Shown here in pieces: positions 45 through 61,932 of a stretch of 64,000 bases of DNA; position 1 is the first letter of the stretch, and every line of letters begins with the position of its first letter. Where the stretch lies: assembly GCA_964436385.1 (NCBI GenBank), contig CAYTCO010000002.1, positions 12,720 through 76,719 on the forward strand. Direction: 5' to 3'. The position numbers and the translations under genes are program-made. The notes below the pieces were generated by a model. The model searched no databases and was not told the origin of the DNA. It saw only the letters and a program-made list of their open reading frames with translations. The DNA is from an uncultured Gammaproteobacteria bacterium (lineage in GTDB: Bacteria; Patescibacteriota; Microgenomatia; Levybacterales; GWA1-39-11).

Positions 45-1166
45 TCAAGACTCTTTCGCATTGTCCCGTATTCTGTAATACATATTTGATCTTGATTGGT
101 ATTCTCGTGTTCTACCATTTCCATCGTCAAATTTCCAAGAGTATTCATTGGCATTTAAATCCAAATCCTTTTCGGGAATAGCTTTAATGTATGGTTTTGG
201 TTTTCCATCTGTTCCGCTTTCTGGATTTGTAGTATCAAGCAAGTACCATTTTCCATCTATTTCGACCGCATTGTTAGCATGGGCTCCGGGCGTCCTCCCG
301 TCAAAAGAAGCATTTGATTTCATAAGCCTAGATGTAATTCCAAGACTCTGAAGAAGCACCTGTGTCACAAGTGCATGGTGCCGACATACAGCTAGTTTTT
401 GATCCGCAATATCGGAGAGCATTACCGTGCCATACATCACTGATTCGGCATTTTCAGAAACCCCGAAATTATAAGGCATTGAAGTGTAGACAAAATCCAT
501 TACTTCAGAAACAACATCACTTTCCCACTCATCTGTGTCTTTACCTTCAGTTTCTTGTATCGTAAGCACCTTTTTGAATAGTGGTTGAGCCTGCTTAAAA
601 AGCTCCTTCTTGTTAATCCTAATTCTTTCACGGCTTCTTAGCTCATTATCCGTATTTCCGTCGCCGCCCATATCAGATAACCCATCGGGGATATAAGCTG
701 GGACTGCTTGCCTTACTATATCGTCAGGAGGAAACGCCGCTCTATCAAGCTTTATATTCAAATCTAGGTATGTATCCGTGTAGCGGCTCGCACGTCTTTC
801 TCGTTCTCTGGGTGCTTCTTTTTCGTCTCCTAATATGGCCAAAAGGTTGTTGCGTCCGTTTTCTAACTTTGAGAATGGGTCAATGTGAAATTCAGCAACC
901 AACCCATCAAACTCATTATCTGACAGATGTGAATTGCGATGGAATCTTTTGTTTCCAAACACATCGTACTCAACTACTGGTGTTGTACCGTAAAGCATTC
1001 CCAATGCAAGAGCTTGCTCTTGAGGCGGGCGTTTTGTAGAACGAGGACTAGATCCATCCAATCCCTCAACGTTATCCATACATAATTTATAACAGAAAGT
1101 AATGTGTCTGATATAATTACCCTCAATGAATATTTCAGTTGGAATAGTCAGGACGCAACCCAACAT
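45..1166 (-). CDS. transglutaminase-like cysteine protease domain protein (hypothetical)
   Basis: 373-aa ORF. The C-terminal part has an ordered Cys/His/Asp context (AVCRHHA ... GAHANNAVEIDGKWYLLDTT) like transglutaminase-core proteases. AAGGA lies about 6 nt upstream of the ATG. Confidence 0.5.
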   Translation of the reverse strand: MLGCVLTIPTEIFIEGNYIRHITFCYKLCMDNVEGLDGSSPRSTKRPPQEQALALGMLYGTTPVVEYDVFGNKRFHRNSHLSDNEFDGLVAEFHIDPFSKLENGRNNLLAILGDEKEAPRERERRASRYTDTYLDLNIKLDRAAFPPDDIVRQAVPAYIPDGLSDMGGDGNTDNELRSRERIRINKKELFKQAQPLFKKVLTIQETEGKDTDEWESDVVSEVMDFVYTSMPYNFGVSENAESVMYGTVMLSDIADQKLAVCRHHALVTQVLLQSLGITSRLMKSNASFDGRTPGAHANNAVEIDGKWYLLDTTNPESGTDGKPKPYIKAIPEKDLDLNANEYSWKFDDGNGRTREYQSRSNMYYRIRDNAKES

Positions 1167-1368
1167 TCAATTCCTTTTCAATTAAAAATAAAACTACCAA
1201 CGCCACGAAAATTCAGAGAAATAATTGCATTAGATAGTAGGGGAAAAAGTGTAGCATATCTATGAGCCTGACTTAGGGACAGGTTGAGTTTCCAGACCAT
1301 TAGGTAATTCAAAAAAAGGATGTTACTATAAAATAGACTGACTTGGAAGGATTTCTGCATTAACCAAT

Positions 1369-2505
1369 ATGGACAGTTCAATTACTATTGCGGAAGAGAA
1401 AACGTCTATGGAGCAACAAAACCAAAGTCCCGTAAAAGCGAGCGGTAATCAAGAGATAGAATCTGCCTATAAATTTACCTGGAGAAAGCTAATTTTGCTT
1501 GCTGTTCCTTTTCCTTTATTTAATTTACTTTCAGGAGTATATAAATTTTATCTAGTATTTTTGATTAATCCTGAGCCAATCAGTTTTCAGAAAACTTTAG
1601 TTGAAGTATTCGTTTCCTTCTTAATATCTCTAGTTATAGCTTTACTGGTTATTTTTTTGACAAGTAAAATTTTAAAAAAAGTAGGTTTTGGTAAAAAGTT
1701 AATCAAATGGACTGTTATAGCACTCGTAATTTCAGTAGCAATCCACTTAGTTCCTGGAATGCGCTTGTTCTTGGCATACGCAAACTCAATTCTTTTTGTA
1801 TTTGCAATTGGAGTTTTCTTTACAGTTTTTATTGTCCCAATCGTTATATTAAGGAAGAAGATACTGCAAGGGAGTAAGGTTGTATACCTAATTCTAATAG
1901 CAGTTTATAGTATTTTTTCGTTTAGCATATTCATGAATTCTCAAAGCATGGAATCTAAAAAAGAAGAATTGAAGCAAGAAGCAAAAACGGATCAACAAAA
2001 AGAAAACAATGAATCACTCAAGTTAAAATATCCAAATATAGTACACATGAAGCCTTCATATATTCCTAAAGAAGTTCAGAATTTAAAAGCAGAAGGATAC
2101 GAGGAGTATTATTCTGGTCTAATTTATACAAGAACTTATTGGTGTTCCAAAACAACCATCTTTTATTCAAGAACCACATTGGCAAATATTGAGAATAAGA
2201 AGCAGTTTGAAGAACTCAGAAGGTTTGCTAGCAATGAACCTCTTCAACTGAGTTCGGGTGGCCGTTCGAGAATAGCCGATTTTGATAACACCAAAGCCGT
2301 ACTACACCTTATGCCGAATCCACAGGTTAATGAAAGCAGTCTAACACTATATTGGTATTCAGAAGATGAAAAATTTGAGCACTCGGTATCCGGCGCACTG
2401 GACTGTCTAGTAACAGGTATTAAATCGAAAGCGCAACAATATATGGATGAAGCGGTGCTTACACGGGCAATTTCTGAACTTAAAAAAGTGGCAAAATCAT
2501 ACTAG
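1369..2505 (+). CDS. hypothetical membrane protein
   Basis: 378-aa ORF. The N-terminal half has several long hydrophobic helices and the C-terminal half looks soluble. No family recognised. Confidence 0.5.
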   Translation: MDSSITIAEEKTSMEQQNQSPVKASGNQEIESAYKFTWRKLILLAVPFPLFNLLSGVYKFYLVFLINPEPISFQKTLVEVFVSFLISLVIALLVIFLTSKILKKVGFGKKLIKWTVIALVISVAIHLVPGMRLFLAYANSILFVFAIGVFFTVFIVPIVILRKKILQGSKVVYLILIAVYSIFSFSIFMNSQSMESKKEELKQEAKTDQQKENNESLKLKYPNIVHMKPSYIPKEVQNLKAEGYEEYYSGLIYTRTYWCSKTTIFYSRTTLANIENKKQFEELRRFASNEPLQLSSGGRSRIADFDNTKAVLHLMPNPQVNESSLTLYWYSEDEKFEHSVSGALDCLVTGIKSKAQQYMDEAVLTRAISELKKVAKSY

Positions 2506-2539
2506 GGAATTCTGGTACTATATTCACTTCTTGAGTCTT

Positions 2540-2569
2540 TTCGATAATTAGCCTCAAATGTGTTAAAAT
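2540..2569 (+). promoter_or_regulatory. putative promoter of the ychF 5' stub (TTCGAT-18 nt-TAAAAT with TGT extended -10)
   Basis: TTCGAT at 2540-2545 and TGTTAAAAT at 2561-2569, 7 nt upstream of the stub ATG at 2577. Confidence 0.35.
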
Positions 2570-2576
2570 ATTAAAT

Positions 2577-2669
2577 ATGAATTTAAGTGTTGGTATTGTT
2601 GGGTTGCCGAATGTAGGAAAGTCTACATTGTTCAATGCTTTACTCAAAAAGCAGGCGGCTTTGGCTTAG
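2577..2669 (+). pseudogene. ychF: 5' remnant of a second ychF allele (30 codons then TAG)
   Basis: It translates to MNLSVGIVGLPNVGKSTLFNALLKKQAALA, identical to residues 1-30 of the intact YchF at 6938. There are 18 differences in 90 nt and all are synonymous. Similarity ends at 2667. Confidence 0.85.
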
Positions 2670-2710
2670 ATACGATATTTGTTCTTGACACGTGATGGTA
2701 TCATATAGTT

Positions 2711-3718
2711 ATGCGAAAGGAGGGTGGTTTTGATTCGGTGGCACTCGGAGAGTCTTTTCGGGAAAGGATAATTCGTCCTGAATCAAGAGAAATTTTCATA
2801 TCAAAAATTCCGCAAGAAGAGCTGGTTGATAGTACTCATGCATACATTAACTGTGACGGATTCGGAATAGTGAGGCGGGCCGTTACGCAAAGACCTGACT
2901 GGCCAGATATTGATATACTTCCGGAATTAGTTCCTGCAAAGCTAGGAATATCGGAAGAGGATGCATCACTTACGCAAATATTCAGAGTTGGAGCCTGTAA
3001 TTTTAGATGTTGGTATTGTTTTGTCGACTTTAGATATTTAAAGGCTGACTCTTCACGGGGTGATTTTAAGTCTCCAAGTGATTTAATAGATTTATATGAA
3101 CAAGAAGAGGTCCAAGCTCCTACATTTTACCTGACGGGTGGTCAACCTGATCTTGTGCCAGAATGGACGCTTTGGATGATGGATGAACTTGAAAAAAGAG
3201 GCATGGATAAGACTCATTTTTTATGGCAGGATGATAATCTAAGTTCGCTCTTTCTCTTTGAGAAGTTAACCCCTGAGCAACTCGATCGAATTGCGAAATA
3301 CCCCAATTATGCCCGAGCCACATGCATAAAGGGAATAAGCCCTCAGTCTTTTTCAAGAAATACGGGTGCAGCACCGGAATATTTCGATCTGCAAATAGAA
3401 GCATTGCGAAGGTTGGTGGAAGCAGGTATAGATACCTATACTTATATTACCTTGCTTGGAGAATCGGTCGCGGAAGCTAGAGAAGCGATTCCCTCTCTGA
3501 TGGATAAAATTCAAGAGGAGGTCCATCCAAATATGCTTCTTCGGGTATTTCCCTCGAAGGTAATTGATTTTCCTCAGACCGTACAAAGGGAAAAAGAGTA
3601 TCACATTCAGTTGATGGACAATCAGCAAGCAATGAGGGATATTTGGACAGAAGAGTTGGGAAAAAGATATACTCAGGAGTTATTAAGTCTACCAAAATCA
3701 GAAGTACCACTCACTTAG
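2711..3718 (+). CDS. radical SAM enzyme, subfamily unresolved
   Basis: 335-aa ORF with CNFRCWYC (CxxxCxxC) about 96 aa from the N-terminus, followed by YLTGGQPDL (a GGE-like SAM motif). There is no C-terminal Cys cluster, so no SPASM domain. TTGACA sits at 2685-2690. The exact start is uncertain: AAGGAGGG lies just inside the ORF. Confidence 0.8.
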   Translation: MRKEGGFDSVALGESFRERIIRPESREIFISKIPQEELVDSTHAYINCDGFGIVRRAVTQRPDWPDIDILPELVPAKLGISEEDASLTQIFRVGACNFRCWYCFVDFRYLKADSSRGDFKSPSDLIDLYEQEEVQAPTFYLTGGQPDLVPEWTLWMMDELEKRGMDKTHFLWQDDNLSSLFLFEKLTPEQLDRIAKYPNYARATCIKGISPQSFSRNTGAAPEYFDLQIEALRRLVEAGIDTYTYITLLGESVAEAREAIPSLMDKIQEEVHPNMLLRVFPSKVIDFPQTVQREKEYHIQLMDNQQAMRDIWTEELGKRYTQELLSLPKSEVPLT

Positions 3719-3724
3719 GAAAAT

Positions 3725-4354
3725 ATGCAAATTGAGCGGATACGACCAGTCGAAAATGCTTCTGATAAAAATAGGATTATTACCGTTACGGGAATATCAG
3801 GTGCGGGAAAGGACTATCTAGTTAAAAAGGCAAGCGAGCTCGAACCCGAATTACTAGGTGGCAAAATAGCAATTTTCAATTTTGGATCTGAGTTACTTGC
3901 AAGCATCCGCCAATCACTTGCTGATGCAGATTCCATTACACAAGATGCGTTAAAAGATATGCAGCTTGACGACCTAGATGCATATATTCAGCGAACGCTT
4001 GATAGACTTATAGGTTTTCAACCCAGTCTTCAGATGACTCATGTCGTTTTCAAGCAACGAGGTTCATATGTTATGAACCCTCAAAGCGAATTGCGTACAA
4101 AGGCACTCGAGTATTTGTTTATAGAGTCGGATCCGGATCAAATTAGCCAGTGGAGAATTGAAAATCAGGATAAAAGAAAAAGGGAGATAGAGCTTATGGA
4201 TGACATAAATCTACATCAAACAATTGCTAGATTGGGAACATACGCAATGGCAACAAGATTGGGTGCGGGGATGGTTATTGTGAAAAATGATCCCTCATTT
4301 ACTGATTCCATTGCTTGTGAAATGGTACAGGAATGCCGCGATTTATTATTATGA
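3725..4354 (+). CDS. P-loop nucleoside-monophosphate kinase, archaeal adenylate-kinase (AdkA)-like
   Basis: 209-aa ORF with Walker A GISGAGKD near the N-terminus. The C-terminal layout (LFIESDPDQISQWRIENQDKRKRE ... INLHQ ... VIVKND) resembles archaeal AdkA-type kinases. It starts 6 nt after the radical SAM stop codon. Confidence 0.6.
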   Translation: MQIERIRPVENASDKNRIITVTGISGAGKDYLVKKASELEPELLGGKIAIFNFGSELLASIRQSLADADSITQDALKDMQLDDLDAYIQRTLDRLIGFQPSLQMTHVVFKQRGSYVMNPQSELRTKALEYLFIESDPDQISQWRIENQDKRKREIELMDDINLHQTIARLGTYAMATRLGAGMVIVKNDPSFTDSIACEMVQECRDLLL

Positions 4355-4912
4355 AAATTGATATTCTTTTTTGAGATATTCCAGAAGTTTTTCGTAGTGA
4401 TCTTTATTTCTTTTATATATCTTCAGGTCAAGCATTTCTGCGATGGTTAGTTTTTCGTTCTCAGGTAAGAAAATCTTATCGGCATACCATCCGTCTTTTC
4501 CTTTGGCAGTGTAGGCAATAGATCCTCTTGGGAATGTACTAAATGAAACTGGTTTTGACCCTGGTACGCAGAATGCAACACAATATTCCCAATGTGCTTC
4601 TCGGTTACCTACTCCAGACATAAGATTAAGAAAGCCATCAGTTTCTATCCATTTTTCAATATGAGATAAATATGGTCCCGGAAATCCATGGAGAGCATCG
4701 ATGTAAAGTCCAACATCTTCACATATAACAGGTTTATTGAATGTTTGAGATGCCCATTTTGCTGAAAATTCTGCTACATCTGAATTATTGGTAGACTGTA
4801 TCTCTGGAGTTGTTTCATTGAGCTGAATAAAATTAAACTGAGTCGTCGATAGAGATTCCGAAAACTTTCTGAACTTATAGTTATTGCTAGTTACAAAATA
4901 TATGTCAGTCAT
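4349..4912 (-). CDS. non-canonical NTP pyrophosphatase, HAM1/ITPase family
   Basis: 187-aa ORF. The motifs FVTSNNYKFRKF, TPEIQ, CEDVGLYIDALHGFPGPYL and TIAEM match the ITPA/RdgB pattern. It converges on the kinase gene with a 6-nt overlap. Confidence 0.8.
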   Translation of the reverse strand: MTDIYFVTSNNYKFRKFSESLSTTQFNFIQLNETTPEIQSTNNSDVAEFSAKWASQTFNKPVICEDVGLYIDALHGFPGPYLSHIEKWIETDGFLNLMSGVGNREAHWEYCVAFCVPGSKPVSFSTFPRGSIAYTAKGKDGWYADKIFLPENEKLTIAEMLDLKIYKRNKDHYEKLLEYLKKEYQFS

Positions 4913-4939
4913 GCGAAGAGATTCGATAATTATCTGTTG

Positions 4940-4968
4940 ATTATATATGTGATAGGTTAGGAATTCAA
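4940..4968 (-). promoter_or_regulatory. sigma70-type promoter for the HAM1-like gene (TTGAAT-17-TATAAT)
   Basis: On the minus strand, TTGAAT (4963-4968), a 17-nt spacer and TATAAT (4940-4945) lie about 27 nt upstream of the start at 4912. Confidence 0.55.
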
Positions 4969-4980
4969 ATAATGGTACAT

Positions 4981-5009
4981 TTGACGGCTTAACATTTCTA
5001 TCCTATAAT
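4981..5009 (+). promoter_or_regulatory. near-consensus sigma70-type promoter for the 605-aa ORF (TTGACG-17-TATAAT)
   Basis: TTGACG at 4981-4986, a 17-nt spacer and TATAAT at 5004-5009. Only 11 nt separate the -10 box from the ATG at 5021, so the leader would be very short or absent. Confidence 0.6.
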
Positions 5010-5020
5010 ACCCAAATATT

Positions 5021-6838
5021 ATGAATTCATCAGAAGCTTTAATTAGCAGTCAAGTTGGTGCTGCCTACTTTTCGCTTGATCCTTACATGAAAAGAAGCTT
5101 TCAGCAGAGAATGAATATTGGTATTACATCTTGCGAATCGGAAAGTGGAGCAACACCTGAAATGTTAGCGGGTGCCCGAGATTTGGGCTTTAAAGAGCTC
5201 TCATTAGATTTGTTATTCGGTGCTATCAATTACAAATTGGCTCAGAATGGTATAGAACTACGTGCAGGAAATAATTATAAAAAAGAAAGAGGGCAGATTG
5301 TATCGAATATACTTGATGATATTCAAATTGAGAAAGGTCCTGATAGTTTTCGGATAGCCTTTCGTAGCGATGAGGATAAAGATACGAGCGAGAAAGGAAA
5401 ATCTCAGTTTGATGGAGAAGTAGCTGAAATAACTCGATTGATGAATGATAGGGCAATATATGGAAGGGTGCTTGGATTTGTAAAGAAATATTTGGCAGAA
5501 AATGTCGGCATTGTTGTGTCCCAGTCTGCTCCAGAACAATTGGTCGAAAACGGTTTAGGAATAGTTATATGTGACAAGGAAACAGAAGTAAAGCCTGACA
5601 TTAGAAGAAAAGCAAGCAAAGTATTCTTAGGTGGAAATAGGACAAGTGCAAAGTTTGCTTTGTTAAGAGAGATAGTATTTACCGAGGCAATTTTGGAGCA
5701 ACAGAAAGCATTAAAAAGGAGTATCGAAAATAGAAAAATAAATCTTGAACCGAAGTTTAAACTATCAGATTGGCCAAGAGACCCATTAATGACTTATATT
5801 AGGGAGTGTGTTGCACGGCAGACTGGTGATTTTCTTGGAAAAACAGAGATGTTATGTGATCCCCAAGATTTAAAGTATCAGGTGCTTTTTAGACTGACTA
5901 CATTTCCTGTTAAATCGCTTTTTCACGCGGGTCAGGAACTGGAGCAATATTTACAAGCAAATGGAAATTATCATGATTGGCGTAATATATTAAAAACTGA
6001 TCCCGATATTGTGAGAAGTTATTCCATGAATGATGACCTTGTTGAATTTGTAATTTCTGAACAGGCTGCAGTTATCCAAGAGAGAATGGAGAGAAGTCCA
6101 CTACCTCTTGAAAGCATTCTTACGCCTCGGGGCATTTTTGCTGAACCGGGTTGGGTAATTCAGAGGAAAAATGGTACCGTGAGGGCTGTAAAAGAGGAGG
6201 GGATTACGTCAGTTAGCGACAGTGTAGGTTTGCGTTTTGAGGAAATCGATCCTGCACTGGCTGCTCAAATTCATAACGACTTACACTATATACATACCCC
6301 AAGGGCTGATATCTCATTTGGTTTGTTTGTCGAAGGAGAAGAGCTTCCATTCTCAGCCCTTGCTTTTGAGAAAATAGACAGAGATTATAAGGCAAACACA
6401 TTAATACTTAATGGATACGATCCTCGCAAATGTTACGACCTTACACGACTTTATAGTAGGCCGGGCACACCAGGTAATACGAGTAGTAGCATGTTTTCTC
6501 TTGCATTTGGGTATCTGAAATCTAATTATCCAGAAATTCAGGCAGTTATGTCTTCATTTATGCCTAGTTATGCAACTGGTATATCAATGACTTCAGGGGG
6601 TTTTGATAATCCTGTTCTTATCAAGCCGCTAAAACATGTTTTTCTTCCAAAAGACTTGGGAAAAGTTAAAGCATTCGAACATTTAACAAAAAGGAGAATG
6701 GTCAGCAACGTGGCCAATTCTCTGGTTAGTCAAGTTCCCCTCCTTCCAACAGCAGAGTTGCTGTGCTCATTACATGGTCCAGCATTCTCTCCCGCGGAAG
6801 AAGTAAATAAATTTATGATTGAGGTGGTAAACCCATAA
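5021..6838 (+). CDS. hypothetical 605-aa protein; C-terminal third GNAT-like (tentative)
   Basis: Long uninterrupted ORF behind a strong promoter. The C-terminal segment (YDLTRLYSRPGTPGNTSSSMFSLAFGYLK ... ATGISMTSGGFD) resembles the beta4-alpha3-beta5 core of a GNAT fold. No family is recognised for the N-terminal 400 aa. Confidence 0.55.
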   Translation: MNSSEALISSQVGAAYFSLDPYMKRSFQQRMNIGITSCESESGATPEMLAGARDLGFKELSLDLLFGAINYKLAQNGIELRAGNNYKKERGQIVSNILDDIQIEKGPDSFRIAFRSDEDKDTSEKGKSQFDGEVAEITRLMNDRAIYGRVLGFVKKYLAENVGIVVSQSAPEQLVENGLGIVICDKETEVKPDIRRKASKVFLGGNRTSAKFALLREIVFTEAILEQQKALKRSIENRKINLEPKFKLSDWPRDPLMTYIRECVARQTGDFLGKTEMLCDPQDLKYQVLFRLTTFPVKSLFHAGQELEQYLQANGNYHDWRNILKTDPDIVRSYSMNDDLVEFVISEQAAVIQERMERSPLPLESILTPRGIFAEPGWVIQRKNGTVRAVKEEGITSVSDSVGLRFEEIDPALAAQIHNDLHYIHTPRADISFGLFVEGEELPFSALAFEKIDRDYKANTLILNGYDPRKCYDLTRLYSRPGTPGNTSSSMFSLAFGYLKSNYPEIQAVMSSFMPSYATGISMTSGGFDNPVLIKPLKHVFLPKDLGKVKAFEHLTKRRMVSNVANSLVSQVPLLPTAELLCSLHGPAFSPAEEVNKFMIEVVNP

Positions 6839-6874
6839 TGATTCAAGCTTAGTGAACTAAAATCATATTAGTTT

Positions 6875-6883
6875 TGTTATAAT
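6875..6883 (+). promoter_or_regulatory. extended -10 element (TGTTATAAT) upstream of intact ychF
   Basis: TGTTATAAT lies 54 nt upstream of the ATG at 6938. No good -35 element. Confidence 0.35.
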
Positions 6884-6899
6884 TACCTTCATGAATCTA

Positions 6900-6919
6900 T
6901 CCTGCGGCGTTGCGCAGGA
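6900..6919 (+). other. GC-rich 7-bp hairpin in the ychF leader
   Basis: TCCTGCG-GCGTTG-CGCAGGA: a perfect 7-bp stem with a 6-nt loop. No U-tract follows. Confidence 0.4.
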
Positions 6920-6937
6920 CTGCATTCAAAATAAACT

Positions 6938-8044
6938 ATGAATTTGTCTGTCGGGATAGTTGGGTTGCCAAATGTTGGCAAGTCCACTTTGTTTAATGCT
7001 TTGCTTAAAAAGCAGGCAGCACTTGCTGCAAATTATCCTTTTGCAACTATTGAGCCAAATGTTGGGATCGTTGCAGTTCCTGATGACAGACTTGCGGTTC
7101 TTGCAAACATCACAAAAGAAGAAGAGGGGATGACTGACCTTCCACCAATAAAGCCCGCAATGGTTGAATTCGTTGATATTGCAGGTCTTGTTAAGGGAGC
7201 CTCTGAAGGAGAGGGCCTTGGAAATAAATTTTTATCCCACATAAGAGAGGTAAAAGTAATAGCTCATGTTGTGAGGGTTTTTGAAGACGGAGATGTAATA
7301 AGAGAAGGAAGTGTGTCACCTCTTGATGACTACTTGACGATTCAAACCGAGCTTATCCTCTCCGATTTACAAACAATAGAAAATAGCAAAAAGAAAAAAG
7401 AAAAAAGCAAAGAAGAGCTTCTTGAAAGGATCGATAAAATGTTGAATGAAGGAATTCCTGCAAGAAAAATGGAATTTTCTGAAGAAGAGCTGGAGTTTGT
7501 TGACACCCTCTCTTTATTGAGTCGAAAGCCAGAAATAATAGTTTTGAATGTTTCCGAAAATGATTATTCAGAGTCAAAGTTTGAATCTATTATTAAAGAA
7601 TATTCTTCTCATCTCGTAAATAACCAATCACCAGCCACCAGTCATCAATTCGTTGTCGTTTCTGCAAAGATAGAGTCAGAGCTTGCTTCACTTGGCGAGG
7701 AAGACGCAAAGCATTATCTTTTAGAGTTAGGCGTTGAGAAGTCAGGTCTTGAAAGACTTATCCAAAAGGCTTATGAGAAATTGGGCCTCATGTCATTTTT
7801 AACATGCGGTGAAAAAGAGGTCAGGGCATGGACAGTAAAAATTGGCGCAACAGCCGTTGAGGCTGCTGGAGAGATACACACGGATTTTATGGCGAAATTT
7901 ATAAAAGCGGAAGTAGTTTCGTATGCTGATTTTGTTGGGCTGATTGGATGGAAGGGTGCAAGAGAAAAGGGTAAAGCCGGGCTTCAAGGAAAAGAATACA
8001 TAATGCACGACGGCGACGTAGTCGAATTTAAGATTGGTAGATAA
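6938..8044 (+). CDS. ychF: ribosome-binding ATPase YchF
   Basis: 368 aa. G1 motif GLPNVGKST, the typical YchF N-terminus and the TGS-like C-terminal end (MHDGDVVEFKIGR). Confidence 0.95.
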   Translation: MNLSVGIVGLPNVGKSTLFNALLKKQAALAANYPFATIEPNVGIVAVPDDRLAVLANITKEEEGMTDLPPIKPAMVEFVDIAGLVKGASEGEGLGNKFLSHIREVKVIAHVVRVFEDGDVIREGSVSPLDDYLTIQTELILSDLQTIENSKKKKEKSKEELLERIDKMLNEGIPARKMEFSEEELEFVDTLSLLSRKPEIIVLNVSENDYSESKFESIIKEYSSHLVNNQSPATSHQFVVVSAKIESELASLGEEDAKHYLLELGVEKSGLERLIQKAYEKLGLMSFLTCGEKEVRAWTVKIGATAVEAAGEIHTDFMAKFIKAEVVSYADFVGLIGWKGAREKGKAGLQGKEYIMHDGDVVEFKIGR

Positions 8045-8082
8045 TTTGTATATCTTCTACGCTTTGCGAAGTTTGGCAAACC

Positions 8083-8109
8083 GTTGTCGAATTTAAGATC
8101 GGGCGTTAG
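8083..8109 (+). pseudogene. ychF: 3' remnant of a second ychF allele (VVEFKIGR-stop)
   Basis: GTT GTC GAA TTT AAG ATC GGG CGT TAG encodes the same last 8 residues as the intact ychF (8018-8044). All five codon differences are silent. Confidence 0.6.
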
Positions 8110-8252
8110 TTATCGCTTTCCCCGTTGTGTTCAGGGTGCTTGCGATTATGTCTTGTGGCAACTTCATAAATCCCGACGCCTGCTGCGACAACTCCTACTG
8201 CTGCTACCTCAGCTATTGAGTGTAGGTTTTTGGAGTTAAAGACAGCTTCCAT
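8106..8252 (-). CDS. possible small membrane protein (48 aa)
   Basis: ATG-to-TAA ORF not in the supplied track: MEAVFNSKNLHSIAEVAAVGVVAAGVGIYEVATRHNRKHPEHNGESDN, with one hydrophobic helix. No clear RBS. Confidence 0.3.
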   Translation of the reverse strand: MEAVFNSKNLHSIAEVAAVGVVAAGVGIYEVATRHNRKHPEHNGESDN

Positions 8253-8359
8253 GGTTCTTGCAAAATTTCCCTTTGTGCTGCCTACTTCTGAGAATGCATG
8301 AACACCTTTGACTCATAACGCCTGATTCTAACAGAGGGTGGCCTTAAGTTCAAGGTTTT

Positions 8360-60975: not shown

Positions 60976-61932
60976 GTGGAAGATAAAAAGACCCTACCCT
61001 CAAAGCTAGATAAACACATTCACACATACCTTGAGTATTTGGAAATTGAGAAAAACGCCTCAAAGCTTACAATCCGTAACTACAAATTCTACCTGAGTCG
61101 CTTTACTGGTTGGTTTGAGGCTAATCACGCTCAAAAAAACATAAATGACATAAATATTGAGTTAATTAGAAGATATAGAATATGGTTATCTGACTATGTT
61201 GATGACAAAGGAATAACTCTAATGCGTGTTACCCAGAGTTATCACATAATAGCACTTCGCTCTTTCTTACGATTTTTAATCAGAAACGATCACGATACTT
61301 TATCTCCTGAAAAAATAGATCTGCCAAAAGGTGAAAGCAAAAGCCTAAAATTTTTGGGGCGTGATCATTTGCGTGAGCTTATGAATTCAGTTGACACCTC
61401 AACGGAAAGAGGTCTTCGTGACCGCTCAATACTTGAATTGCTATTCTCAACTGGTCTTCGGGTATCTGAGTTATGTAGGCTTAACAGGGACCAAATGAAC
61501 TTCAAAACTCAGGAATTTGGAGTAATTGGGAAAGGTGGGAGAGCAAGAATAGTCTTCCTGTCAGACACCGCTATTTTTTGGTTACAAAAGTATTTTGAAG
61601 TTCGGGAAGACAATTTTCAACCTGTATTTATTAGGTACGCAAAAGGAATAGATCCGATAAATCAGGGAGAGCGGATGAGGCTTACTCCCCGCTCTGTTGA
61701 GCGAATTGTCAGTAAATATGTAAGGCGTGCAAAGCTCCCGGTTGATGCGACACCCCACACCCTTCGTCATAGTTTTGCAACTGATCTTCTATATAATGGG
61801 GCTGATTTGCGCTCAGTTCAGGAAATGCTTGGTCACAAAAATATAAGCACAACGCAAATTTATACTCATGTAACTAACCCACAACTTAAAAATGTCCACC
61901 GCAAGTTTCATCAAGGGAATAAAAGACAATAA
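60976..61932 (+). CDS. tyrosine recombinase, XerC/XerD-like
   Basis: 318 aa with a GTG start. The N-terminal SAM-like domain (YLEYLEIEKNAS..T), then GLRVSEL, HTLRHSFATDLL and LGHKNISTTQIYTHV (catalytic R-H-R-Y context). Confidence 0.85.
   Translation: MEDKKTLPSKLDKHIHTYLEYLEIEKNASKLTIRNYKFYLSRFTGWFEANHAQKNINDINIELIRRYRIWLSDYVDDKGITLMRVTQSYHIIALRSFLRFLIRNDHDTLSPEKIDLPKGESKSLKFLGRDHLRELMNSVDTSTERGLRDRSILELLFSTGLRVSELCRLNRDQMNFKTQEFGVIGKGGRARIVFLSDTAIFWLQKYFEVREDNFQPVFIRYAKGIDPINQGERMRLTPRSVERIVSKYVRRAKLPVDATPHTLRHSFATDLLYNGADLRSVQEMLGHKNISTTQIYTHVTNPQLKNVHRKFHQGNKRQ

Follow-up and report, generated by a model that had tools for sequence, protein, structure and literature searches.

Genomic islands and integrative elements insert at the end of a conserved gene and bring a replacement end with them, as is seen at the 3' ends of tRNA and tmRNA genes and at the 5' end of dusA. 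The gene ychF, which encodes a housekeeping GTPase, is an integration site of serine-recombinase pipolins in Actinomycetota (PMC11551731). Gene ends are also displaced at the loci of Rhs, contact-dependent inhibition (CDI) and type VI secretion system (T6SS) effectors, in a process termed "C-terminal displacement" that involves orphan modules (PMC5361080, which cites Jackson et al. 2009). The T6SS/Rhs displacement arrays have been attributed to homology-facilitated illegitimate recombination (PMC5361080), a process that takes place during natural transformation and for which that paper cites de Vries & Wackernagel 2002 and Prudhomme et al. 2002. Here we analyse a ychF locus on a 64,000-nucleotide stretch of contig CAYTCO010000002.1 (assembly GCA_964436385.1, positions 12,720 to 76,719), referred to as the window, in which an intact ychF is accompanied by short fragments of ychF ends, called stubs, and by accessory genes lying between them. 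Gene-end displacement and integration hotspots are known phenomena and the ychF case is a variant of them. We understand ychF in this Levybacteria lineage as a recombination hotspot and the stubs as displaced ends of earlier ychF alleles, a reading that we consider modestly probable.

Results

The intact ychF of the window encodes a protein with the domains of a full-length YchF (Pfam MMR_HSR1, 1e-23; YchF-GTPase_C, 6e-32), which is 77% identical to YchF of the nearest other species and has its closest named relatives annotated as Levybacteria. The 5' fragment called stub A, recovered by tblastn with YchF at E=4e-12, translates at 2577-2666 into MNLSVGIVGLPNVGKSTLFNALLKKQAALA, followed by TAG, and matches residues 1-30 of the intact protein (6938-8044) exactly. 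At the nucleotide level 18 of its 90 positions differ from the intact 5' end, all of them synonymously and including AGT/TCT (Ser) and TTG/CTT (Leu). The 3' fragment called stub S (8083-8109) reads VVEFKIGR and stop, with 6 of 27 nucleotides differing from 8018-8044, the last eight codons and stop of the intact gene. The similarity between stub and gene ends at ~2667 on the 5' side and begins at ~8082/8083 on the 3' side; the longest identical runs are 11 nt (5') and 14 nt (3'), and at the 2666/2667 and 8082/8083 junctions at most 1-2 nt past the stub still agree with the intact copy. In the 64-kb window a degenerate codon pattern for YchF residues 1-8 matches three sites and one for the YchF C-terminus two, with 0 expected from shuffles in each case. 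Re-translation and alignment thus reproduced the two stubs, their synonymous differences, their abrupt ends and their short identical runs as the original prediction had given them. Its view of the stubs as genuine fragments of a diverged ychF allele is supported as well: the homology sets in practically with the start codon, as expected of diverged alleles and not of a segmental duplication. No donor allele can be named for stub A, which shows ~80% identity to all the ychF 5' ends available.

The same structure is present in independent samples and assemblies, from which it follows that the stub arrangement is real and no accident of assembly, in agreement with what had been anticipated. A Logan contig from ERR8482638 covers both junctions at 100% identity, SRR12762303 holds each junction on a contig of its own, and the 3' junction is also present in NCBI GCA_020049755.1. 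In a variant strain (ENA ERZ27275549, Logan SRR5278607) the 5' junction is found with sequence differences of its own.

This variant, termed the sister strain, is represented by the ENA ERZ27275549 contigs L013 and L007 and the Logan SRR5278607 contig L014 (contigs are denoted here by L and a number). Over 3.6 kb of upstream core genes the window and the sister strain are 90.8% identical (9.2% difference). A 5.9-kb block (~1141-7035) that ends at ychF nucleotide 98 (7035) is common to both at ~99.9% identity, differing by only four scattered mismatches and one 37-nt cluster of eight within stub A. Given the core divergence of 9.2%, the block identity reveals a recent exchange of the 5.9-kb composite between diverged genomes, with crossovers inside stub C, a further 5' fragment, and inside ychF. 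The eight clustered sister-strain changes in stub A (2609-2645) all agree with the intact ychF allele and thus record gene conversion between stub and gene. At the left crossover, strain differences cluster at 1112-1140, that is in the promoter and codons 1-5 of stub C, and then stop. Stub C of the sister strain encodes MNLSVGIV and is, by direct comparison, identical at 23 of 24 positions to the native ychF 5' end of L024. To the left of stub C the genes of the two strains are unrelated, a transglutaminase-like gene in the window and a 146-aa gene in the sister strain.

At the right crossover ychF itself is a mosaic. Compared with the sister-strain gene (L007:2560-3666) it has 0 mismatches up to 7035, 31 in 7036-7324 (10.7%), 0 in 7325-7668 and 51 in 7669-8046 (13.5%); 75 of these 82 differences are synonymous and 7 non-synonymous. 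Outgroup distances, used to tell apart the foreign segments of the two ychF genes, placed window and sister strain equidistant. The 344-nt segment 7325-7668, 100% identical between the strains, is the one least conserved among species, and its conserved flanks differ by 11-13%. The slot between the SLT gene and stub C is likewise variable (window 45-1166, minus strand, versus L013:3658-4098, minus strand) and has the stub C promoter (1107) as its right edge. In the window it holds a listed open reading frame (ORF) of 373 aa (45-1166, minus strand), whose first ~30 codons overlap stub C and are probably untranslated.

The ychF end fragments of the window are four in number, not two. From left to right the locus is composed of stub C, a 62-nt junction sequence named Z with a 378-aa ORFan, stub A, a four-gene cassette, stub B, ychF, a 38-nt spacer, stub S and a fabD-like remnant (Table 1). 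Stub C was found by the pattern for YchF codons 1-8, for which 0 chance matches are expected. Stub B forms a 16-codon upstream ORF (uORF; 6891-6941), the TGA of which overlaps the ychF ATG (ATGA). Within a GC-rich hairpin (6901-6918, folding at -17 kcal/mol) the uORF has a perfect GC stem of 6 bp, and stub B also carries remnants of Z (CAGGAC, CATTCAA and AATAAACTA), the overall likeness to Z being weak (z=2.7). The overlap of the uORF with the ychF start and the GC stem suggest translational coupling or regulation of ychF.

Three of the four fragments keep a ychF-type extended -10 element placed 7-8 nt 5' of the ATG, and the native ychF genes of relatives (L008, L024, L025) have the same kind of element at a distance of 6-7 nt from the ATG. 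TGTTAWAAT-N7-ATGAAT is matched at 2561 and 6875 and nowhere else, with 0.05 matches expected. Two promoter families can be distinguished, one comprising stub C, stub B and L024, the other stub A, L025 and L008. The stub C promoter belongs with that of native L024 ychF (z=5.6-6.0), which is the type native to the clade of the window, and the stub B promoter belongs with that of stub C (z=3.0-3.4). The stub A promoter is of the L025/L008 type (z=3.9-4.3). A promoter-like element does lie at the 5' stub, as had been proposed, yet its type is non-native.

On the 3' side, the ychF of the sister strain ends with GTTGTCGAGTTTAAAATCGGTCGTTAG and passes directly into a full-length, frameshifted, convergent fabD-like gene; no 3' stub is found there. 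Stub S agrees with this native end at 24 of 27 positions and with the window's own intact end, which resembles the L024/L025 type, at 21 of 27. The 38-nt spacer (8045-8082) is homologous to spacer 3 in a tandem array of ychF 3' ends in L025 (z=6.3). Because stub S is closest to the sister-strain end, which runs into the same fabD-like gene, it is the native 3' end, pushed aside by an incoming 3' end together with the spacer. The intact ychF lies in foreign-looking DNA, accompanied by a scar upstream (stub B) and a spacer downstream that both belong to it, in support of the earlier proposal that the functional gene was carried in.

That proposal had further taken stubs A and S for the two ends of one resident gene, the interior of which was replaced by a 5.4-kb segment. 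For stub S the native type bears this out, but stub A is located inside the strain-shared 5.9-kb block bounded by stub C, and the non-native promoter type of the one stub and the native type of the other argue for an origin from different alleles. The sister strain has stub A and lacks stub S, so a single interior replacement is possible and not required; it also misses the nested stubs and the larger mobile block. The displacement of stub S and the formation of the stub A junction may belong to the same event or to separate events, either being possible. Beyond stub S, the window and the sister strain are 78% identical up to 8307/8308 and 98.8% from there on, the switch falling exactly at the joint of a deletion in the fabD-like gene. 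In the sister strain (L007:3663-4758, minus strand) a frameshift splits that gene into 206-aa and 167-aa pieces that match TIGR00128 fabD. In the window it has an internal deletion of ~900 bp, and the gene seems to be decaying in both strains.

Displacement at ychF recurs elsewhere. Short ychF stubs with other cargo (e.g., MazEF, AbiTii, a hydrolase) were found in at least seven lineages. In another species (YchF 76% identical), represented by L010:1072-2853, L011:6583-8364 and L012:92-1873, an 8-codon stub with the resident promoter and Z precedes a cassette of two genes, one with a Fic domain and one of 110 aa, which probably form a toxin-antitoxin pair; after the cassette comes ychF with a different promoter. 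The junction in these contigs is the same as in stub C (...GGNATAGTC/AGRAC...; ...ATAGTC/AGRAC...), and the next 62 nt are ~80% identical to Z of the window (alignment z=16.9). L008 (L008:1019) has the same upstream genes (TfoX_N, 86-aa, 45-aa) and no insert and, by its gene order, looks like an empty site for the L010 cassette, though it comes from a different species. L024 has a similar stub with a weak Z (z=2.5) and hydrolase cargo, and L039 (6401-8000) a 7-codon stub with MazE/MazF cargo and a sequence not at all similar to Z. In L025:11076-11289 (GCA_964409875.1) the ychF 3' end (last eight codons and stop) is present in four tandem copies, separated by spacers of 31, 31 and 48 nt and with the first two 57-nt units near-identical. 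The 3' stub lies 5.5 kb downstream in L099 (1324-6821; 58% GC), across cargo that includes AbiTii, a protein kinase and a response-regulator-like gene, and 1.7 kb downstream in L037 (1389-3083), across a 526-aa ORF without Pfam family. L099, L039 and L037 represent more distant bacteria (YchF 48-59% identical). Stubs thus occur in other lineages at the 5' end only or at the 3' end only.

A control scan of 691 ORFs gave extra 3'-end copies for ychF only, and the few extra 5'-end matches outside ychF seem to stem from low-complexity repeats, an overlapping frame or the N-terminus of a paralogue. No ychF fragment longer than 30 codons was found in ~95 loci. Pfam analysis revealed no recombinase among the scanned cargo ORFs of L099, L037, L039 and L024, and the precomputed annotation of L010 lists none. 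An uninterrupted form of the window's own locus had been suggested as a check. No relatives of the downstream 260-aa protein were found in GTDB genomes, and the upstream 378-aa protein led only to the sister-strain copy with the same stub A junction. The window outside the locus is ordinary housekeeping chromosome; the downstream synteny (260-aa gene, HIT, S21, YbeY, DnaX) is kept in relatives, and the immediate flanks of ychF vary. A gene for TfoX_N, a competence-regulator domain, is located just upstream of ychF in a single Levybacteria species group (L008:110-430, L010:163-483 and L011:5662-5994), a circumstantial pointer to DNA uptake. The entry of L023/L010 (CAZEEU010000011.1) carries the title "uncultured Gammaproteobacteria bacterium", likely a taxonomic error, given that both its YchF and its gene order match those of Levybacteria relatives.

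Several identities considered for the junction sequences were discarded. Z has no Rfam family, contains no tRNA and adopts no consensus fold, which rules out an RNA gene, a tRNA fragment or a structured element. Nor is it the end of a minus-strand gene, since the frame that encodes the common peptide FRGVGS is not open in L010. Scans with exact 21-mers and 24-mers of Z in genome, metagenome and viral collections returned only L010's own contig and three chance matches. The idea of a conserved right cassette end was given up as well, since what lies there is a ychF promoter from one or the other of two families (z<=1.6 for L010 versus all others). The ychF promoter (TTATGTTAAAAT) was dismissed by eye as a dif-like Xer site, lacking a counterpart of the XerC arm.

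Table 1. Positions and characteristics of the features at the ychF locus, in window coordinates
Feature	Coordinates	Strand	Characteristics
Stub C	1109..1149	+	Extended -10 TGATATAAT (1109-1117), 8 nt, ychF codons 1-8 (1126-1149, MNISVGIV); left boundary of strain-shared block
Z	1150..1211	+	62-nt conserved non-coding junction sequence directly after codon 8 of stub C
Cargo 1, ORFan	1369..2505	+	378 aa, between stubs C and A; no Pfam family
Stub A (5' stub of original prediction)	2541..2669	+	Promoter-like TCGATA-17-TAAAAT with TG (2541-2569); ychF codons 1-30 (2577-2666); TAG (2667-2669)
Cargo 2 gene 1, radical SAM enzyme	2711..3718	+	PF04055; CxxxCxxC motif; uncharacterised family
Cargo 2 gene 2, P-loop adenylate-kinase-like	3725..4354	+	AAA_17; NCBIfam PRK04040 54.7 bits, under cut-off of 155
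Cargo 2 gene 3, Ham1/RdgB-like non-canonical NTP pyrophosphatase	4349..4912	-	PF01725 9e-26; NCBIfam XTP/dITP diphosphatase 136 bits, under cut-off
Cargo 2 gene 4, Mom-like C-terminal region	5021..6838	+	605 aa; PF25680 1e-6, residues 404-511
Stub B	6875..6941	+	Degenerate copy, now ychF leader; extended -10 TGTTATAAT (6875-6883), 7 nt, ATGAATCTATCC... (MNLS, then scrambled)
Intact ychF	6938..8044	+	368 aa; sole full-length copy in window
Spacer	8045..8082	+	38 nt, arrived with intact ychF 3' end; none in sister strain
Stub S (3' stub of original prediction)	8083..8109	+	Last 8 ychF codons and TAG; stop overlaps stop of convergent gene remnant
fabD-like gene remnant, convergent	8106..8316	-	Start codon and 2 codons fused to last ~70 codons; 48-aa ORF 8106-8252 is the tail

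The cargo of the window consists of two parts. The 378-aa ORFan has a sole homolog among 5.8 billion proteins, the 99% identical copy of the sister strain. The genes for the radical S-adenosylmethionine (SAM) enzyme, the kinase-like protein, the Ham1-like protein and the Mom-like protein form a conserved four-gene module (window 2711-6838; L015:10001-14109; L018:6675-11563) that is present on several contigs of Levybacteria or related members of the Candidate Phyla Radiation (CPR). In these other Levybacteria the module occurs in varied contexts and never beside ychF; in L018 the gene order differs. In L015-L017 the module adjoins genes of nucleotide metabolism (dCTP deaminase, dNK, dUTPase, ThyA, DHFR). 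The domains permit no more than a guess at its role, which may lie in the modification of nucleotides or DNA or in defence. No relatives of the cassette were found in viral contigs.

The radical SAM protein is a member of a widespread uncharacterised family, and its AlphaFold model (pLDDT 94) gives best PDB matches at a TM of only ~0.47, so that no solved structure is a close relative. For its homolog in Sediminibacter, a search for the genomic context returned no record. An assignment as prokaryotic viperin (pVip) was rejected: the PADLOC pVip match (E=4e-6) covers residues 94-166 only, the NCBIfam viperin score is 22.6 bits against a cut-off of 180, and by fold the viperin-like enzymes (TM ~0.43-0.46) compare no better than other radical SAM enzymes. 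A match to QueE extends over the cluster motif only and is far under the cut-off. The 605-aa Mom-like family is small (222 representatives among 1.84 billion), and the protein has no sequence match in the PDB. Pfam analysis of the four insert genes found no recombinase, as the original prediction had stated for the insert. The sole recombinase found in the window, 53 kb from the locus, is a 318-aa tyrosine recombinase (60976-61932, plus strand; Phage_integrase and N-terminal SAM-like domains), probably a housekeeping Xer.

Discussion

The hotspot reading of ychF implies a sequence of events that can be outlined as follows. Foreign chromosome chunks carrying accessory genes together with ychF, or with one ychF end, would pair with the resident gene by ychF homology. 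The join would keep the incoming copy whole, and the resident promoter with the first 8-30 codons, or the last 8 codons, would be shunted aside as a dead stub. Repetition of such events could build the nested array of the window. The finished composite would then possess targeting arms of its own (left, a stub; right, ychF), by which ordinary homologous recombination could copy it into a related genome at ychF with no inactivation of the gene; stub and gene would keep swapping sequence through gene conversion. The primary joins may represent homology-facilitated illegitimate recombination following DNA uptake, and the displaced promoters may now drive the cargo genes. We favour recombination that is anchored in ychF and closed at its far end by an illegitimate join or one of very short homology, because no recombinase was found in the cassettes examined, the copies have diverged, the right ends amount to foreign ychF genes under promoters of native type and the junctions lie at several positions. 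Homology-facilitated illegitimate recombination is characterised by a homologous anchor on one side and a non-homologous join with 0-10 nt of microhomology on the other; ychF provides the former and the stub junctions the latter.

Several observations weigh against this interpretation. The stubs are all short (5' stubs of 6-8, 7, 8, 8 and 30 codons; 3' stubs of 8, 8 in three copies, ~11 and ~13), and such clustering is unexpected for random illegitimate joins, unless longer repeats are lost quickly. A survival bias of this kind could explain the pattern, cargo between long repeats being lost by recombination. Two species have exactly the same junction and a homologous 62-nt Z, which is more like the defined end of an element. 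The sister strain was pieced together from two non-overlapping metagenome contigs (L013, L007). Classical homology-facilitated illegitimate recombination usually deletes recipient DNA, whereas here the anchor end is duplicated. Natural transformation is, moreover, not known from these organisms.

The clustering at the gene ends also fits the main rival reading, a site-specific one. The stubs would then be attL/attR-type scars of small non-autonomous cassettes, inserted site-specifically after ychF codon 8 or in the last 8-13 codons, bringing a replacement promoter and first codons and mobilised by a recombinase encoded elsewhere. The identical junction with homologous Z (z=16.9) in two species with different cargo, the uniformly small cargos (0.9-1.7 kb), the gathering of stubs at the extreme gene ends, the reported use of ychF as attachment site by serine-recombinase pipolins in Actinomycetota (PMC11551731) and the Xer-like tyrosine recombinase at 60976-61932 would all be in keeping with it. 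We nonetheless regard it as doubtful. No recombinase lies in or beside any cassette; the right ends are not conserved, being merely native-type ychF promoters that differ from one another; Z is weak in L024 and not similar in L039, and its 21-mer is absent elsewhere in genome, metagenome and viral collections. Stub A with its 30 codons and the 3' stubs with 8-13 codons lack one common site, and the putative core copies are 20-30% diverged. Repeats derived from the target (ychF codons 1-8 or 1-30, or the last 8 codons) do flank the cargo, but at only ~70-80% identity and with no exact core in common. A single event, as originally predicted, would have placed a contiguous 5.4-kb piece (cassette, stub B, whole ychF and 38 nt) into resident ychF between codons 30 and -8 and made stubs A and S the two ends of one gene. 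This course we consider rather improbable. The segment 2670-8082 does resemble a contiguous slice of the ychF neighbourhood of another genome, in which variable genes lie upstream, followed by the scar of a native-type promoter and by a spacer that looks like a terminator, and both junctions are abrupt with little or no microhomology. However, the sister strain shows the identical junction of stub A and cassette next to a normal 3' end, which would demand an extra repair event; the non-native promoter of stub A and the native type of stub S point to different alleles; and 5'-only and 3'-only stubs are the rule in other lineages.

The stubs might also have been kept as functional units, leaderless mini-ORFs whose promoters drive or regulate cargo (stub A for the radical SAM operon) and ychF (the stub B uORF). 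This proposal, compatible with either model of origin, we judge unlikely. Every 5' stub retains an intact extended -10 and ATG, the uORF stop of stub B overlaps the ychF start next to a GC-rich hairpin in an AT-rich genome, and codons 1-8 remain synonymous across the stubs of different lineages; yet the synonymous pattern is equally explained by origin from a selected gene or by gene conversion, and a generic promoter scan performed no better on the sequence than on shuffles. An assembly chimera or collapsed strain mixture is scarcely credible. It is true that the sources are all metagenome assemblies and that related strains share samples (L012 and L001 both stem from ERR8482638), but the structure is identical across independent samples and assemblers, the copies share runs of no more than 14 nt and a second strain has the same junction with polymorphisms of its own.

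The hotspot reading has importance for the biology of the CPR, whose genomes are tiny and whose gain of accessory and defence genes is poorly understood; the ychF locus provides a concrete, repeatable footprint of such gain. The sites that received toxin-antitoxin, abortive-infection and nucleotide-modifying cassettes can be recognised by the short displaced ends of a housekeeping gene, and the two-strain comparison catches a composite moving between genomes that are ~9% different elsewhere. If the stubs are indeed portable homology arms, or sites of an unknown recombinase, this would explain how cargo targets a conserved gene across species with no integrase, and extra copies of the first or last eight codons of a core gene would constitute a simple signature for such hotspots in metagenomes. 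As a tentative generalisation, with the odds rather against it, one may envisage a family of integrase-less cassettes (0.9-1.7 kb) in Levybacteria, possibly in other bacteria, that home to the first eight ychF codons, have the ~62-nt left end Z and carry a replacement ychF promoter and start, such that the essential gene is never interrupted. They would move via a host recombinase or with their own stub as minimal homology arm (self-targeting), and the window would represent a stacked array that also captured the four-gene radical SAM module.

Regarding the described systems, the locus resembles integron arrays in its stacking of small cassettes, each of one or two genes, at a single site, with the newest beside the fixed point. 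Unlike in integrons, no IntI was found, Z has no attC-like hairpin or consensus structure and the cassettes bring their own promoters. With gene-end islands and pipolins it has in common a displaced short gene-end copy across the cargo, a target that stays functional, cargo of defence, toxin-antitoxin and accessory genes, and ychF as documented target (PMC11551731). It is distinct from them in having no integrase in any cassette and copies that are 20-30% diverged in place of an identical core, in the several junction positions (codons 8, 30 and -8) and in that, in the window strain, a whole foreign ychF appears to have come in. The Rhs, CDI and T6SS arrays differ in that the gene affected here is a single-copy housekeeping GTPase and no polymorphic toxin, that both of its ends, 5' and 3', undergo displacement and that the cargo has nothing to do with its function. 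The analogy is otherwise close: new modules displace older gene ends, the orphans keep a short conserved piece usable for homologous recombination, and arrays move between strains thereby (PMC5361080). Measured against homology-facilitated illegitimate recombination, the ychF junctions are set apart by their recurrence at the same codon across species, whereas the conserved anchor (ychF) beside non-homologous cargo, the abrupt junctions of low homology and the mosaic anchor gene are features that the two share.

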